Part shown: positions 50,240-55,522 of the stretch, piece by piece | How the letters are laid out: each line of letters opens with the position of its first letter | How positions within the stretch are numbered: the stretch's first letter is position 1 | From: Betaproteobacteria bacterium | Lineage (GTDB): Bacteria > Pseudomonadota > Gammaproteobacteria > Burkholderiales > WYBJ01 | Length of the DNA: 64,000 nucleotides | Direction: 5' to 3' | NCBI GenBank assembly: GCA_009377585.1 | Contig: WHTS01000004.1 | Location: 11,874-75,873, forward strand | The notes under the pieces: generated by a model | Told to the model about the DNA's origin: nothing | Databases searched by the model: none | Seen by the model: only the letters and a program-made list of their open reading frames with translations | Position numbers and translations under genes: made by a program

Positions 50240-51769
50240 GTGCGTGTCGGCATCGTGTCCGCTTTCGTCGACTACCATCGGCGCGGCGCGCACCACCGCG
50301 GCGTGCTGCAACCCCAGGTCGGTCCCCTGCTCGCCGCCTTGCTGCCCGCCGGCGTCGAGGTCGACGTGGTCAACGACGCCTGGACCGACCCCGACTGGGC
50401 GCGGGACTACGATCTGCTGCTGATCTCCTGCCTGCACTCGGACTTCGATCGGGCGCGGCAGATCTCGCACTATTGGCGCCGCCGCGGGGCAAAGACCGTG
50501 CTCGGGGGCATCATGGCGAGCACTTTCCCCGGCGTATGCGCACCCTGGTTCGACGCTATCGTCATCGGCGATCCGGAAGACACGGTGCCGCGTCTGGTCG
50601 ACGATTTCGCCCGCGGCAACCTGCAGCCGGTGTACCGCTCGCGCGGCTACCGTCCGGCTGCCGTGCCCACGCCGAAAGTCGAATTGATGGCCGAGCAGCA
50701 GCTTCTGCCGCTCGGGCTCGAAGCCACCCGCGGCTGCAATTTCGCCTGCGACTTTTGCGCCCTGACCGCCGCCGGCACCCGCTTCGAAACCCGGCCGGCC
50801 GGCCACGTGGTCCGCGATCTGATCGCGATGCGCGCAGCACTCGGTGCGCGCGCGCGCTGGCCGCGCGATGCCATGGTGATCTTCTACGACAACAACATCG
50901 GCGGCAATCCGCGTTATCTCGCCAGCCTCGCGCAGGCGCTCTCGCGCCTGAACATCCGCTGGGGGTCGTGCATCACCTTCAACGCAGCCGACGATGAGCA
51001 GCTCATCGCCACGCTGGCGCGCTCCGGCTGCCGCTATCTCTACGTCGGCCTCGAAAGTTTCAACGCACGCACCTTACGCAGCATGAACAAGCGCCAGAAC
51101 GTGATCGCCCGCACCCACACCATGATCCGGCGCTGTCACCGGCTAGGGATTCTGCTCGATGCCGGCCTCATGCTGAGCCCGCTCGAGGACGACCTCGAGT
51201 ACGTGCGCGCCATCCCCCGCCTGCTGGACGAAAGCGGCTTGAAGGTGCCGAGTTACATCTGTTTCGAGACGCCGATTCCCGGCACGCCGCACTTCCACAA
51301 GCTGGCCGCGTCGAAGACGCCCGCGCTGCTGCCCAATGCGCTGCTGCGCGACTTCAGCACCTACACCCTGGTGACGCGGCCGCGGCATGCGCCGGCAGCG
51401 GAATTCATCGCCGCCTACAAGACGCTCATCGCGGAAGTTTTCGCGCCGGCACGGCGCGCGCGCAAGCTCGCGCACGACGCACGCAGGCTGCTCCCCGACG
51501 GCGGCTGGTTCGCCTGGGCGCTCGATTGCGCCGCGCAGTACTGGAACGCCTACCGGCCCGATCCCGATCGAACCTATCTCGCCGGCAGCGATCGGGCGCC
51601 GCCCGAGGCCGAACGTATCCCGTTCGCTCCGGACGACTTCCGCGACGAGGAGGAGCTCGAGGCCATCATGAAACCCTGGGCCGTAGCCGATTGCAACGGA
51701 TTCGTATTGCCGCAGTGGCTCGGCGCGACACCGGCTCATGAGCGCAAGCGCCGGGCGTCGGTCGCCTGA
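50240..51769 (+). CDS. Radical SAM protein with N-terminal B12-binding-like domain
   Basis: KTVLGGIMAS, IGDPE; EATRGCNFACDFC (CxxxCxxC); FYDNN, YVGLES, TPIPGTP. Confidence 0.88.
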   Translation: MRVGIVSAFVDYHRRGAHHRGVLQPQVGPLLAALLPAGVEVDVVNDAWTDPDWARDYDLLLISCLHSDFDRARQISHYWRRRGAKTVLGGIMASTFPGVCAPWFDAIVIGDPEDTVPRLVDDFARGNLQPVYRSRGYRPAAVPTPKVELMAEQQLLPLGLEATRGCNFACDFCALTAAGTRFETRPAGHVVRDLIAMRAALGARARWPRDAMVIFYDNNIGGNPRYLASLAQALSRLNIRWGSCITFNAADDEQLIATLARSGCRYLYVGLESFNARTLRSMNKRQNVIARTHTMIRRCHRLGILLDAGLMLSPLEDDLEYVRAIPRLLDESGLKVPSYICFETPIPGTPHFHKLAASKTPALLPNALLRDFSTYTLVTRPRHAPAAEFIAAYKTLIAEVFAPARRARKLAHDARRLLPDGGWFAWALDCAAQYWNAYRPDPDRTYLAGSDRAPPEAERIPFAPDDFRDEEELEAIMKPWAVADCNGFVLPQWLGATPAHERKRRASVA

Positions 51770-51866: not shown

Positions 51867-51903
51867 CCCTCACCCTCAACCCCTCTCCCGGGGGGAGAGG
51901 GGA
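51867..51903. repeat. CCCTCTCCC/GGGAGAGGG REP element
   Basis: CCCTCACCCTCAACCCCTCTCCC...GGGAGAGGGGA, same family as 27402, 31460, 57303. Confidence 0.8.
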
Positions 51904-52034
51904 GCGTCGCGTCCGTATTGGACTGTCGTCCAATACGGAACGATCAATAAGAAGTGATTGTCAGTTCCAACTTGTACGTCGGCCTGCACGGGCGCTGGCG
52001 GCTCGATGAAATGTCCGGGCTGGACGGCGATCGA

Positions 52035-52982
52035 TCATGTTTTCACTTCGTTCAGCAGCGGGTGTGCGTCGCGCAGCCGCCGGCAGTTCTCGATCGCGAC
52101 GTCGAGGCTGCGCGCGAGCGTTTCCGCTGTGAGCCACGCCACGTGCGGCGTCATCACCACGTTGTCGAGTCGTGCGAGCGCGAGCCCGGCGCCGGCCGGC
52201 TCGACCGCCAGCACATCCACGCCCGCCGCGCGCAGCCGCCCCGACTGCAGCGCCTGCACCAGGGCCGCCTCATCGACCAGACCGCCGCGGGCCGTGTTCA
52301 CGAGCACCGCGCCGGGCTTCATGCGCGCAAGGGCGGCTGCGTCGATCATGCGCTCTGTTTCCGGGGTGAGCGGCACGTGCAGCGATACGATGTCGGCTGC
52401 AGCCAGCAGCTGCGGCAGCGCGAGGAATTCGCCGCCGGCTTCGGCCTTGCGGCTTCGGGCGGTGTACAACACACTGGCACCGAGGGCCTGCAATACGGGC
52501 GCGAGCCGCCGTGGCACCTCGCCGTAGCCGATCAATCCGACCGTGCGGCCCGCGATCTCGCCGACCGGGTCGAGGTTTTCCGGCGGCAGCGTCCAGCCCC
52601 GGCATTCGCGCGTGGCGCGATCGAGCAAGGGAATGCGGCGCAGCGCCGCCAGCATGAGCGCCAGCGTCATCTCGGCCACCGCCTGGCTGTTGGTCCCGGG
52701 CATGTTGGCGACGGCGATGCCACGAGCGCGCGCGGCGTCGAGATCGATCGTGTTCACGCCGACCCCGATCTTCTGGATCAGGCGCAGCCGCGGCGCGGCC
52801 GCGATCATCGCCGCGCTGACCGGCGTCAGCACGTGCAGGAGCACTTCGGCATCCAGCATCTCGCGGCGAAAGGCGGCTTCGTCGGCTTCGTCGACGATTG
52901 CAACCTCCAACCAATCGGGCGCAGCGGCGAGCAGCTGCTGCCGAAATGCCGGGCTCGCGCGAAAGTGCAGCACCGCCTTCAT
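52035..52982 (-). CDS. D-isomer-specific 2-hydroxyacid dehydrogenase
   Basis: GVGVNTID, NMPGTNSQAVAE, GLIGYG, LHVPLTPET, NTARGGLVDE, DVLAVEP, TPHVAW; ATGA overlap with the enolase. Confidence 0.92.
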   Translation of the reverse strand: MKAVLHFRASPAFRQQLLAAAPDWLEVAIVDEADEAAFRREMLDAEVLLHVLTPVSAAMIAAAPRLRLIQKIGVGVNTIDLDAARARGIAVANMPGTNSQAVAEMTLALMLAALRRIPLLDRATRECRGWTLPPENLDPVGEIAGRTVGLIGYGEVPRRLAPVLQALGASVLYTARSRKAEAGGEFLALPQLLAAADIVSLHVPLTPETERMIDAAALARMKPGAVLVNTARGGLVDEAALVQALQSGRLRAAGVDVLAVEPAGAGLALARLDNVVMTPHVAWLTAETLARSLDVAIENCRRLRDAHPLLNEVKT

Positions 52983-54268
52983 GGCGTTCGCTCGCGCGGC
53001 GCGAGGACGCTACGTCCGGCATAACGGGCGGCCGGGCCGAGCGCCTGTTCGATGCGCAGGCCCTCGTTCCACTTCGCCATGCGCTCGGAGCGAGCAAACG
53101 ATCCGACCTTGAGCTGGCCGCAGTTCCAGCCCACCGCCAGATGCACGATGCTGGCATCTTCGGTTTCGCCCGAGCGCGCCGACACGATCGTTGCGAAACC
53201 GTGCGCCCGCGCGGCCACCAACGCTTGCTTCGTTTCGGTGATGGTTCCGGCCTGGTTGGGCTTGAGCAGCACGGCGTTGCACGCGCCCGCCCGGGCCGCT
53301 TGTGCGATGCGCTCGGCGTTGGTCACCAAGTAGTCGTCGCCGATGATCTGCACGCTCGCACCGGCCGCGCGCGTGAAGGCTTGCATGCCGGTTGCGTCGT
53401 CTTCCGCCACCGGGTCCTCGATGGAAACGATCGGATAACGTGCGAGCCACGCCAAAAGCTGGTCGAGCCATTCGCCGCTATCCAGCTCGCGCCCTTCCAG
53501 CCCCAGCCGATAGCGGCCGTCATGGCCGAATTCGGATGCGGCGATGTCGAGCGCGATGGCGACCTCGCCGTTGCGGTAGCCCGCGGCCTCGATCGATTGC
53601 GCCAGGGCCGCCAGCGCCTCCTCGTTGGAATCGAACTGCGGCCACCAACCGCCCTCGTCGGCCACGCCAGCCCGGCGCCCTCGCCGTTCCATCCAGACAC
53701 CGGCGTGGCGATAGACTTCGGCGCACATCACCAGCGCCTCGTCGAACGATGCGGCGCCCACGGGCATTACGAGGAAATCCTGGATGTCGACACGGCGGCC
53801 GGCGTGCGCGCCGCCGCCGAAGATCTGGATCTGCGGCAGCGGCAGCGTGACCTCGCCGTCGCTCGCGAGATAGCGCCACAACGGCTGCCCGGCCCCAGCG
53901 GCAGCCGCCTGCAGCACCGCGCACGAGGTCGCGATCGTCGCGTTGCCGCCCAGGCGCGCCTTGTTCGGCGTCGCATCGAGCGCGACGAGCACCCGGTCAA
54001 CGCCTTCCTGGTCCAAGGCGTCCAGTCCCTGCAGCGCCGGCGCAATCGTGGTGTTCACGTTCCGCAATGCGTGCGAGACGCCGAATCCTCCCAACGCCTC
54101 GCCGCCGTCGCGCAGATCGACCGCTTCGTGCGTGCCGCGGGAGGCCCCGGCCGGCGCCATGCCGCGGCCGCGTGCGCCGCATGCCAGCGCCACCTCCACC
54201 TCGACCGTGGGCCGCCCACGCGAGTCCCAGATCCGGCGGGCCGTGACCTGCTCGATTCTCGTGCTCAT
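52979..54268 (-). CDS. eno: Enolase paralogue with altered active-site residues
   Basis: DSRGRPTVEVEV, GASRG, GGAHA, DEGG, LDIAASEF, SIEDP, GDD, KPNQ, RSGETED, QLKVG, RSERMAKWN; QDF replaces QEF and SARSG replaces SHRSG. Confidence 0.88.
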   Translation of the reverse strand: MSTRIEQVTARRIWDSRGRPTVEVEVALACGARGRGMAPAGASRGTHEAVDLRDGGEALGGFGVSHALRNVNTTIAPALQGLDALDQEGVDRVLVALDATPNKARLGGNATIATSCAVLQAAAAGAGQPLWRYLASDGEVTLPLPQIQIFGGGAHAGRRVDIQDFLVMPVGAASFDEALVMCAEVYRHAGVWMERRGRRAGVADEGGWWPQFDSNEEALAALAQSIEAAGYRNGEVAIALDIAASEFGHDGRYRLGLEGRELDSGEWLDQLLAWLARYPIVSIEDPVAEDDATGMQAFTRAAGASVQIIGDDYLVTNAERIAQAARAGACNAVLLKPNQAGTITETKQALVAARAHGFATIVSARSGETEDASIVHLAVGWNCGQLKVGSFARSERMAKWNEGLRIEQALGPAARYAGRSVLAPRERTP

Positions 54269-55332
54269 GCTGCGCTACGCTCGGCCCAAAGTTCGCGGAT
54301 GGCACCGAGCCGCCCCACCGGATCGACCAACAACCCGCACGCAAACGTTCGCACCCGCGCGCGCTGCGCCTCGTCCGTCAGGTACTCCACCGGCGATTTG
54401 CCATCCACCCGCGCCAGCAGCATGCCGGCAAGCAATCGACAGGCGCGCGCTTCCAGGGCTGCCGGCGGCTCCCACGCCACGCCGGCGACATAGGACGCGA
54501 CGAACGTATCGAAGCAAGCCAGATAATCGGCGCGGTGCGCCGGACGCCACAGGCACTTCAACAGCAGGTGCGTCAGGCAGAACGCCGCGTCGAATGCCGG
54601 ATCGCCGTACCACGCGCATTCCGCATCCAGCAGCACAGGCCCGGCGGGTCCGACCAGGATGTTCTTCGGGCTCACGTCGCCGTGCACCAGTGCCAGTCGC
54701 GTCGCCGCGGTGGTCTCGATCAGCGCCAACAGCGCCGGCGCACAATCGGGATTGGTTTCGGCGGCCGCGGCGAAATAGGCAGACAGGCGCAGGGCGCGAA
54801 ACGCCGTGTCGTCGGCGAATCGATGCGCGATGTCGGCACGGCCCGCGGTCGCGGCCTGGATGTGCACCAGGGTTGCAGCAACCGCCGCAGCCGTGTCGGT
54901 GCGCACGCAGCCGTCGCGCAGCTGCTGCTTCCATACCGGGTAGGTCTCGGGCGGCAGATAGTGCATCGCGAACGCGCGAGCGAGCGGATCTTCGCCCAGA
55001 ATCTGCGGAACCGCTGCGGGTGCCGTTTGGGCGGCGACCCGGATCCAGGCAACTTCGGCGGCGTTGCGCTCGACCGGCGCGAACCAGGCGGCAGCCACCT
55101 TCAGGCGCGGCAGCGCGCGCTTGACGCACACGGGCCCGCGCGCAGTATCAGCGCGCACGATCCTGGACGAGACACCGCCCTCCAACTCGGTCAGTTGGGG
55201 CAACTCGTGCGCATCGACCAGCCCCATGCGCTTGAGCGACGCCACGAATTCGACGCCATCGTCCGCACGCTCCGCCGGCTTCTGCGCAACGCTATCGCGC
55301 GACTGAGCGTCCGGTCGATCACGCATCTCCAT
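54265..55332 (-). CDS. APH/choline-kinase-fold phosphotransferase (methylthioribose-kinase-like)
   Basis: LEGGVSS, VCVKRALPRLKV, LVHGDVSPKNILV, LLDAECAWYGDPAFD; stop overlaps the enolase start. Confidence 0.85.
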   Translation of the reverse strand: MEMRDRPDAQSRDSVAQKPAERADDGVEFVASLKRMGLVDAHELPQLTELEGGVSSRIVRADTARGPVCVKRALPRLKVAAAWFAPVERNAAEVAWIRVAAQTAPAAVPQILGEDPLARAFAMHYLPPETYPVWKQQLRDGCVRTDTAAAVAATLVHIQAATAGRADIAHRFADDTAFRALRLSAYFAAAAETNPDCAPALLALIETTAATRLALVHGDVSPKNILVGPAGPVLLDAECAWYGDPAFDAAFCLTHLLLKCLWRPAHRADYLACFDTFVASYVAGVAWEPPAALEARACRLLAGMLLARVDGKSPVEYLTDEAQRARVRTFACGLLVDPVGRLGAIRELWAERSAA

Positions 55333-55400: not shown

Positions 55401-55454
55401 GAAAATGGGGACGCACACACTTTCCGCAGCGAAATTGTGTGCGTCCCCATTTTC
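55401..55454. repeat. Long inverted repeat (MITE/REP-like)
   Basis: Perfect 18-19-bp arms GAAAATGGGGACGCACAC / GTGTGCGTCCCCATTTTC with an inner mini-hairpin. Confidence 0.8.
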
Positions 55455-55487
55455 CCGCGCGCCAGTACGCCGGGCGGACGGCGAAAG

Positions 55488-55522
55488 CAAAAAGTCCCTT
55501 GACCCGCGAGGACCAAGGGACT
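55488..55522 (-). terminator. Intrinsic terminator after the ThDP-enzyme gene
   Basis: Minus strand AGTCCCTTG-12 nt-CAAGGGACT followed by TTTT, 20 bp after the stop. Confidence 0.65.

Follow-up and report, generated by a model that had tools for sequence, protein, structure and literature searches.

An operon for an APH-fold kinase, a variant enolase and a D-2-hydroxyacid dehydrogenase with a probable role in converting glycerate or a closely related acid to phosphoenolpyruvate

Introduction

Enolase is among the most conserved enzymes, and where a genome has a second copy, annotation routinely treats it as one more enolase of glycolysis. To our knowledge, the true-enolase family has otherwise been regarded as single-function. 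Catabolism of glyoxylate, aldarates and tartrate, and likewise the non-phosphorylative Entner-Doudoroff pathway, has a glycerate branch made up of a hydroxypyruvate or tartronate-semialdehyde reductase, a glycerate 2-kinase (GarK/GlxK or MOFRL/TtuD class) and the housekeeping enolase. Plant GLYK makes up a third class of glycerate kinases. Kinases of the APH fold are known from LvaA and ACAD10/11, which form phosphorylate-then-eliminate pairs in 4-hydroxy-acid catabolism and to which the genes described here can be likened.

The present study deals with three genes in a stretch of betaproteobacterial DNA of 64,000 nucleotides, the whole of which is called the window. They encode a kinase of the APH/MtnK fold, a variant enolase and a D-2-hydroxyacid dehydrogenase, and the probable task of the operon is to make phosphoenolpyruvate (PEP) from glycerate or an acid closely related to it. 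The kinase-enolase pair is widely conserved yet unstudied. No published description of the module was found in the full-text literature on enolase paralogues, APH/MtnK-like kinases and glycerate kinases, nor in that on L-glycerate and the changed enolase residues.

Organization of the operon

The first-pass annotation had described the three genes as linked by ATGA overlaps, and the sequence bears this out at both junctions, with the open reading frames exactly where they had been placed (Table 1). These overlaps, a terminator upstream and hairpins downstream make kinase, enolase and dehydrogenase a single transcription unit. Its 5' boundary is the terminator-like hairpin, which sits directly 3' of the gene for a TPP enzyme and was not picked up by a simple terminator scanner. 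The 3' boundary is likely formed by two strong hairpins ~100-150 nt 3' of the dehydrogenase stop, before a convergent radical-SAM gene. The inverted repeat in the kinase leader is a REP-like dispersed element; its arm or core was found elsewhere in the genome, with 17 core copies. A search for RNA runs covering the operon stretch found none, only distant metagenome matches.

Table 1. Features of the operon and its borders (positions in the window)
Feature	Position	Strand	Details
APH/MtnK-fold kinase gene	55332-54265	minus	355 aa; ORF and translation
Variant enolase gene	52979..54268	minus	429 aa; ORF and translation
D-2-hydroxyacid dehydrogenase gene	52035..52982	minus	315 aa; ORF and translation
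ATGA stop/start overlap, kinase/enolase (translational coupling)	54265..54268	minus	gcATGAgc, direct sequence reading
ATGA stop/start overlap, enolase/dehydrogenase	52979..52982	minus	ccATGAag, direct sequence reading
Intrinsic-terminator-like hairpin, then UUUUUGCUUU	55484..55522	minus	-22.1 kcal/mol, z = -3.8
Perfect 19-bp inverted repeat with 16-nt loop, kinase leader region	55401..55454		-42.2 kcal/mol, z = -9.4
Two strong hairpins	51880..51938	minus	-43.9 kcal/mol, z = -7.3; without T-run

It could be argued that the pathway has four genes and begins with the TPP enzyme, e.g. a carboligase making a 2-oxo or 2-hydroxy acid, as the TPP gene precedes the kinase by 210 nt in the same orientation and is also found upstream in the closest relative (L089). 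However, it is followed by the terminator-like hairpin with its U-run, it is parted from the kinase in the relative L088 by a nitrile-hydratase cluster on the opposite strand, and none of the 83 other loci has it. The enzyme reaches no equivalog cut-off either (glyoxylate carboligase, 149 bits against a cut-off of 791). On the terminator, the insertion in L088 and the absence from other loci the TPP enzyme was rejected as a fourth member, and a pathway of this kind is extremely unlikely.

The kinase and the dehydrogenase

The sole Pfam match of the kinase is PF01636, APH (60 bits, cut-off 23), which together with an HGDxxxxN loop and an Asp-x-Glu site places it in the APH/choline-kinase-like superfamily. 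Its motifs are a catalytic loop HGDVSPKN, a metal-binding DAE and a C-terminal DGKSPVEY. Invariant residues were taken from alignments of 16 and 47 sequences, and in the latter H217-G-D219 through N224 and D236-A-E238 do not vary. The many invariant Arg and Lys residues suggest that the substrate may be anionic. In the structure predicted by AlphaFold2 (pLDDT 93) the first ~13 residues are probably unstructured. The top PDB matches of the kinase are methylthioribose kinases (TM 0.72-0.78, 14-15% identity); APH-family antibiotic phosphotransferases, e.g. the corramycin enzyme, match more weakly, and LxmK is also among the structural matches. The likeness to MtnK is one of fold alone, as the kinase scores 47 bits against TIGR01767, under the cut-off of 275, and has no methionine-salvage context. 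It had been claimed at first pass that the kinase is unlike the known GarK/GlxK and MOFRL glycerate kinases, and rightly so: since PF01636 alone matches, it lies outside both known glycerate-kinase folds (class I, PF02595; class II, MOFRL, PF05161).

The dehydrogenase belongs to the 2-hydroxyacid dehydrogenase family (PF00389 and PF02826, i.e. 2-Hacid_dh and 2-Hacid_dh_C; 179 and 91 bits), and its residues 17-296 align to 1YGY and other solved structures through the catalytic region. No equivalog cut-off was reached, the best NCBIfam match being PGDH (TIGR01327, 213 bits against 454), and the protein falls between the phosphoglycerate dehydrogenase and the glyoxylate/hydroxypyruvate reductase groups. 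A His-Val pair is aligned to Arg51-Ser52 of M. tuberculosis PGDH, which we take to be the phosphate-binding pair of the substrate domain. A true phosphoglycerate dehydrogenase (SerA) was rejected on the score below cut-off and the replaced Arg-Ser pair. The resemblance to hydroxypyruvate/glyoxylate reductases would favour reduction of hydroxypyruvate.

The variant enolase

The enolase has the domains Enolase_N and Enolase_C and is a member of the equivalog family TIGR01060 (cut-off 300), with 469 bits against 675 bits for the housekeeping copy of the same genome, to which it is 48% identical. Its residues were placed by residue-by-residue alignment to PDB enolases, with column counts over 70 orthologues. 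Retained, in yeast numbering, are S39, H159, Q167, E211, D246, E295, D320, K345, R374, S375 and K396; they are invariant in the 70 orthologues, the Arg374-Ser375 pair being read from the motif instead. In yeast enolase we take Asp246, Glu295, Asp320 and Ser39 to be metal ligands, Lys345, Glu211 and Lys396 to be catalytic, and His159, Arg374, Ser375 and Gln167 to bind phosphate and carboxylate. Since the ligands of both Mg ions are kept, along with those of the 2-phosphate and carboxylate, the base Lys345 and the acid Glu211, the enzyme is predicted to act on a carboxylic acid that has a 2-phosphate and an alpha proton.

The QDF and SAR motifs singled out in the first-pass annotation are real and run through the variant family. 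Glu168 is replaced by Asp (IQDF) in 70/70 orthologues and His373 by Ala (SARSGETED) in 69 of the 70, whereas both residues are present in 82/82 canonical representatives, so the variant family lacks this pair of canonical enolase. In the wider variant group position 373 can be Ala, Gly, Thr, Ile and others while Asp168 is constant. Further family-specific changes lie beside the catalytic residues, namely A209W after Glu211 and KPNQAG for KxNQIG at Lys345. In a tree of 144 enolase representatives a single split parts the variant group from all 82 canonical sequences. Glu168 and His373 presumably handle the C3 hydroxyl together with Glu211 in yeast enolase. The invariant Glu168Asp change and the loss of His373 thus suggest, as read from the alignment, a C3 chemistry unlike the ordinary dehydration of 2-phosphoglycerate, and this would explain why the kinase is always accompanied by its own enolase.

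These changes, the constancy of Asp168 beside a variable position 373 and the single split of the tree also speak for a second reading, in which the logic is the same and the acid is another than D-glycerate. The housekeeping enolase would then refuse the product of the kinase, which would again account for a dedicated enolase always travelling with it. Candidates are L-glycerate via L-2-phosphoglycerate, lactate with a different C3 leaving group, and four-carbon 2,3-dihydroxy acids such as L-threonate, D-erythronate, a tartrate or 2,3-dihydroxybutanoate. However, to judge by yeast enolase mutants, an enzyme with Glu168Asp or without His373 may still be active, and the alignment of variant and canonical enolases is almost gap-free, leaving little room for a much larger substrate. 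An L-configured 2-hydroxyl is disfavoured by the coupled dehydrogenase, which is of a D-specific family. We regard a substrate other than D-glycerate as a strong alternative, though a less likely one than D-glycerate itself. Sulfolactate, 2,3-bisphosphoglycerate and tartrate, raised by extra Arg residues in two active-site loops, were set aside as candidate substrates: one of these arginines, at loop position 43, is lineage-specific, human enolase is likewise basic at the second of the two loop sites, and no sulfite- or tartrate-specific genes recur near module loci.

Conservation and genomic context

The kinase was found in >592 species. It had been proposed to look for co-occurrence of this kinase clade with variant enolases, and such an enolase lies within 3 kb of the kinase in 74/74 loci with room, across several phyla, and directly downstream of it in 70 of these. 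The arrangement is far beyond chance. Presence and absence of kinase and variant enolase coincide in 23 genomes, with a single departure, in G118, where a second enolase is cut off at a contig end. Two independent kinase-enolase fusion proteins occur, on 6 and 2 contigs, with kinase halves 43% and 38% identical to the kinase of this operon, and they point to consecutive catalytic steps. Conservation of the trio, as first supposed, holds in part: the pair is kept in hundreds of species, but the dehydrogenase, with orthologues 54-70% identical, adjoins it in just 23/83 loci (~28%), and also in L088-L091 and L100. The kinase-enolase pair is the invariant core of the module and the dehydrogenase is an optional third member. 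The module is patchily distributed and probably horizontally mobile.

The same observations bear on the simplest view of the locus, that the enolase is a spare glycolytic isozyme and that the kinase acts on methylthioribose, 5-deoxyribose or an antibiotic, their adjacency having no pathway meaning. It is true that the enolase scores above the curated eno cut-off, that methylthioribose kinases are the nearest structures and that antibiotic phosphotransferases match, if more weakly. But the universal pairing across phyla, the coincident presence and absence and the independent fusions argue against a spare isozyme, and the MtnK score far below cut-off, with no mtnA, mtnB or drd seen among the module neighbours, argues against methylthioribose. 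We consider this view very improbable.

Canonical eno (675 bits) is found on a different contig of the same genome, where it follows pyrG and kdsA, so the enolase of the operon is not the only one, as had been suspected at first pass; canonical enolase is also kept in 16/16 other carrier genomes tested. A MOFRL-type glycerate 2-kinase is encoded in the same genome (contig C10) and in 14/17 carrier genomes, against 49/104 non-carriers (Fisher p = 0.008), while GarK is absent from every carrier genome examined. The positive association speaks against the module being a substitute for a missing glycerate kinase. Genus g17 (G017, G075) has glyoxylate carboligase and the module and no known glycerate kinase, in assemblies 84-85% complete with contigs fragmented around the gcl cluster; this counts in favour of D-glycerate. 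That carriers keep the canonical enolase, and most of them a glycerate 2-kinase, again favours an acid other than D-glycerate.

The genes next to the module at other loci, called by a codon-usage scorer in high-GC DNA, are mostly those of sugar-acid and C3 catabolism. They include GlpK, divergent from the module in ~10 loci, FAH-type acylpyruvate hydrolases, SDRs, aldehyde dehydrogenase, KDG kinase and Eda, IlvD/Edd and MR_MLE acid-sugar dehydratases, TRAP, TctC and ABC carriers and GntR or LacI regulators, and they are heterogeneous among loci. Neighbouring sugar-acid pathways of this kind release C3 fragments, of which glycerate is the sole one with both a 2-hydroxyl and a 3-hydroxyl. The FAH-type hydrolases could also be read in favour of another substrate, because FAH-type routes as in L-fucose and L-rhamnose breakdown would give L-configured hydroxy acids. 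Across loci, however, no extra conserved enzyme stands beside the pair, such as one for a substituted PEP or its 2-oxo acid, and no genes handling sulfite, thiol or ammonia recur nearby. The lack of a conserved downstream enzyme is what one would expect if the product already belongs to central metabolism.

Proposed pathway and its significance

The reading we prefer, to which we give a probability of roughly one half, is that the module is an undescribed route from hydroxypyruvate through D-glycerate and its 2-phospho acid to PEP. The dehydrogenase would reduce hydroxypyruvate to D-glycerate, the MtnK-fold kinase would phosphorylate the 2-hydroxyl with ATP, and the private enolase would abstract the C2 proton and expel the C3 hydroxyl to give PEP. 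The module could thereby bring C3 hydroxy-acid fragments from non-phosphorylative sugar and sugar-acid breakdown, glyoxylate and glycerol into central metabolism. The logic proposed at first pass, to reduce, phosphorylate the 2-hydroxyl and eliminate, fits the gene order, the retained enolase residues, the fusions and the neighbourhoods, with substrate, phosphorylated position, product and direction of the dehydrogenase being what we infer from them.

Counted against D-glycerate are the MOFRL kinase and the canonical enolase already in the genome, and likewise the Glu168Asp change with the loss of His373, the adjacency of the dehydrogenase in ~28% of loci and the mixed neighbourhoods.

A deep and coherent enolase branch with two altered active-site residues always accompanies one uncharacterised kinase family, in some cases as a single fusion protein. 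Should glycerate be the substrate of the pair, the kinase would represent a fourth type of glycerate kinase, so far unrecognised and served by an enolase of its own, and the module would have to be added when the catabolism of sugar acids, glyoxylate and glycerol is reconstructed. If another acid is used, both the reaction, for the enolase family, and the catabolic route would be new. It is conceivable, though we would not put it at even odds, that the Asp168/Ala373 enolases are the first functionally distinct branch of true enolases, with a private kinase on an acid closed to the housekeeping enzymes; the kinase and lyase activities would then both be new, as would the PEP-level entry point, in hundreds of soil and water bacteria. 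Either way, thousands of entries named 'aminoglycoside phosphotransferase' and 'enolase' mislead.

Comparison with known systems

The variant enolase resembles canonical enolase (EC 4.2.1.11; TIGR01060) in its two-domain fold, metal ligands, both catalytic lysines, Glu211, His159 and the Arg-Ser pair. It differs in Asp168/Ala373 and the further fixed changes around both catalytic residues, and in that it is always a second copy beside an APH-fold kinase, branching outside the canonical sequences. With the known glycerate branch the module shares the proposed reaction sequence and similar neighbourhoods, whereas its kinase is of another fold, its enolase is its own and altered, and it coexists with a MOFRL kinase. 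MtnK (TIGR01767; PDB 2pyw, 2olc) offers the closest solved structures and shares the catalytic-loop and metal-binding motifs, but the module kinase is only 14-15% identical to it and has no methionine-salvage genes nearby. In lanthipeptide dehydration by LxmK/LxmY (PDB 9dk2), too, an APH-fold kinase activates a hydroxyl for elimination by a partner; in the module, unlike in that system, the phosphate would stay on the product, the 3-substituent would leave and the partner is a true enolase.

A conserved kinase-enolase module

The kinase and variant enolase genes are a real, conserved and uncharacterised module, and no published description of the pair was found in a literature search. The first-pass annotation had described three genes joined by ATGA overlaps; the open reading frames agree with it exactly, and ATGA was read directly from the sequence at both the kinase/enolase and the enolase/dehydrogenase junctions. 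A sequence search returned thousands of close relatives of the kinase, and a scan of species genomes found it in at least 592 species, including members of Burkholderiales, several alphaproteobacterial orders, Acidobacteria, Dehalococcoidia and Methylomirabilales. Cultured carriers include Paraburkholderia fungorum, Variovorax sp. and Inquilinus ginsengisoli. Neighbourhoods were sampled at 83 loci, 74 of which had sequence beyond the kinase. In all 74 a variant enolase (58–73% identical) lay within 3 kb of the kinase, directly downstream of it in 70. The expected conservation of the whole trio applies to this pair; a dehydrogenase orthologue (54–70% identical), either following the enolase or in divergent orientation ahead of the kinase, adjoins it in 23 of the 83 loci only. 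Apart from the dehydrogenase, no gene was consistently linked in the kinase-locus neighbourhoods.

At the phylum level about 2% of genomes carry the kinase, as do 17 of 121 genomes sampled from the window's order. Three genomes of the window's own genus gave no kinase match, so the distribution is patchy. The window enolase is not the only one in its genome, which has a canonical eno (675 bits) on another contig; the products of the genes directly upstream of that eno are recognisable as CTP synthase and KdsA. Canonical enolase is retained in every carrier, and the 16 other carriers tested all had, in addition, a lower-scoring enolase beside the kinase. A single enolase was found in six of seven genomes tested that lack a kinase match; the seventh (G118, one of the three congeneric genomes) has a second enolase as a contig-end fragment. 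The logic of the first-pass annotation thus holds in both tests that were run, conservation elsewhere and the presence of a second enolase.

Kinase and enolase were also found in one chain, in two representative proteins. The 770-aa fusion exists as two near-identical variants on 6 contigs in all and the 745-aa fusion on 2 contigs; the kinase halves of the two match the window kinase at 43% and 38% identity, respectively, and contain its motifs. These fusions are strong evidence that kinase and enolase catalyse successive steps, and they would make convenient single-polypeptide targets for biochemistry.

Coordinates of the features discussed (L088, locus of a close relative; L097 and L100, metagenome contigs)
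Feature	Sequence	Positions	Strand	Remarks
Kinase gene	window	55332-54265	minus	355 aa; ORF
Kinase N-terminal extension	window	55228-55332	minus	first 35 residues
Enolase gene	window	54268-52979	minus	429 aa; ORF
Dehydrogenase gene	window	52982-52035	minus	315 aa; ORF
TPP enzyme gene	window	57197-55542	minus	551 aa, acetolactate-synthase type; 210 nt upstream of kinase
Perfect 19-bp inverted repeat	window	55401-55454		operon leader region; -42 kcal/mol
B12-binding radical-SAM gene	window	50240-51769	plus	converges on operon
Nitrile-hydratase insert	L088	4928-6652
Kinase-enolase fusion gene	L097	7001-9313		770 aa
Kinase-enolase fusion gene	L100	5802-8039		745 aa

Features of the three proteins

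In profile searches the kinase matched PF01636 (APH) and gave a weak score with the methylthioribose kinase model (47 bits, cut-off 275). Its AlphaFold2 model is confident (pLDDT 93), and among solved structures it comes closest to methylthioribose kinases (TM 0.72–0.78, at 14–15% identity), followed by PsiK, LxmK and the corramycin phosphotransferase. The catalytic loop, the metal site and many Arg/Lys residues are invariant in alignments of homologues, which suggests an anionic substrate. The N-terminal extension is common only to the closest relative, and residues 1–13 are predicted to be disordered (pLDDT <50). Some homologues begin at the Met of RMGL, and the start annotated for the window kinase may lie too far upstream. 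The dehydrogenase, in which both D-2-hydroxyacid dehydrogenase domains are present, missed every equivalog cut-off.

The window enolase has both enolase domains, scores 469 bits with the curated eno model (cut-off 300) and is 48% identical to the canonical eno of its genome. It was compared with solved enolases and 70 orthologues (yeast numbering). The metal ligands, Lys345, Glu211, Lys396, His159, Gln167 and the Arg-Ser phosphate site, whose roles we take to be those published for the yeast enzyme, are unchanged. Glu168 is replaced by Asp in 70 of 70 orthologues and His373 by Ala in 69 of 70; further fixed changes (GGFAP to GG(W/Y/F)WP, KxNQIG to KPNQAG and QIKTG to QLKVG) adjoin both catalytic residues. 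In a search of 1.8 billion representative proteins, about 45 of the best 150 matches combine Asp168 with Ala/Gly at position 373, in two subtypes, and one tree split sets these apart from all 82 canonical Glu/His sequences.

Limits of the transcription unit

The TPP enzyme gene upstream reached no NCBIfam equivalog cut-off (best 217 bits, cut-off 538; sulfoacetaldehyde acetyltransferase 205 bits, cut-off 620). Its membership in the kinase unit is ruled out by a strong hairpin and U-run directly 3' of it (computed fold energy -22 kcal/mol), by its absence beside the kinase in the 83 other loci, and by L088, the locus of a 78%-identical relative. There an opposite-strand cluster that is not in the window separates the TPP gene from the kinase (nitrile hydratase alpha, beta and accessory genes, CbtA/CbtB cobalt transporters and hemerythrin). 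In relatives the TPP gene still adjoins a COXG-domain gene and a DUF349 gene, and hence it belongs to the local backbone. Two strong hairpins lie 3' of the dehydrogenase before the convergent B12/radical-SAM gene; with flanking hairpins and the TPP gene set apart, the trio is a transcription unit of its own. The inverted repeat in its leader is a REP-like dispersed element, the full arm of which is also on at least 5 other contigs of the genome and its 14-nt core at 17 places in the genome. The radical-SAM gene, a response regulator and a hybrid histidine kinase keep their position in the relatives L088 and L089, which places the trio in a stable backbone of the lineage despite the three kinase-negative congeneric genomes.

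A candidate route through glycerate

The operons around both fusions are sugar or sugar-acid routes giving pyruvate and a small hydroxy acid or aldehyde. One fusion gene closes an operon of GntR, SDR, DHDPS, KDG kinase and Eda genes, in that order; the other has a LacI gene on one side and an FAH hydrolase gene on the other, and past that LacI gene, on the opposite strand, are genes for an acid-sugar dehydratase, an acetoacetate-decarboxylase-family protein, a 2-hydroxyacid dehydrogenase and an SDR. Recurrent neighbours of the kinase loci are FAH-family hydrolases (closest to 2,4-didehydro-3-deoxy-L-rhamnonate hydrolase), SDRs, IlvD/Edd or MR_MLE acid-sugar dehydratases, aldehyde dehydrogenase, TRAP, TctC, ABC and EamA carriers, and GntR, LacI and LysR regulators; a divergent, bona fide glycerol kinase is present in about 10 Burkholderiales loci. 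Glycerate is the sole fragment from these neighbourhoods with both a 2-OH and a 3-OH.

The variant enolase keeps the machinery for the carboxylate, the 2-phosphate and the alpha-proton, so its substrate would be a 2-phospho acid, of which the coupled or fused kinase is the obvious source. As no further conserved enzyme accompanies the pair, the product is probably already central, i.e. PEP. The best reading, to which we give a probability of about 0.5, is that the D-specific dehydrogenase would reduce hydroxypyruvate to D-glycerate, the kinase would supply the 2-phospho acid and the variant enolase would remove its alpha-proton to form PEP. By the same logic, a strong but less probable rival reading is that the kinase product would be L-2-phosphoglycerate, a four-carbon analogue or a 3-substituted lactate. 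Against the glycerate route, the kinase always comes with an enolase of its own in which two otherwise universal residues are altered, suggesting a product that the housekeeping enolase cannot use, and carriers already have a canonical enolase and mostly a MOFRL glycerate 2-kinase (14 of 17 carriers against 49 of 104 non-carriers, p = 0.008), the window's genome included. The glycerate route is favoured by two genomes of another genus in the same order (G017 and G075), which have glyoxylate carboligase and the kinase-enolase module and in which, as fragmented assemblies 84–85% complete, no MOFRL or GarK glycerate kinase was found. Should complete genomes bear this pattern out, they would offer natural evidence for the module's ability to do the glycerate kinase step. 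Against the rival reading, an enzyme to process a substituted product is not conserved nearby, the dehydrogenase family is D-specific, and the variant enolase of the window aligns with canonical enolase almost without gaps.
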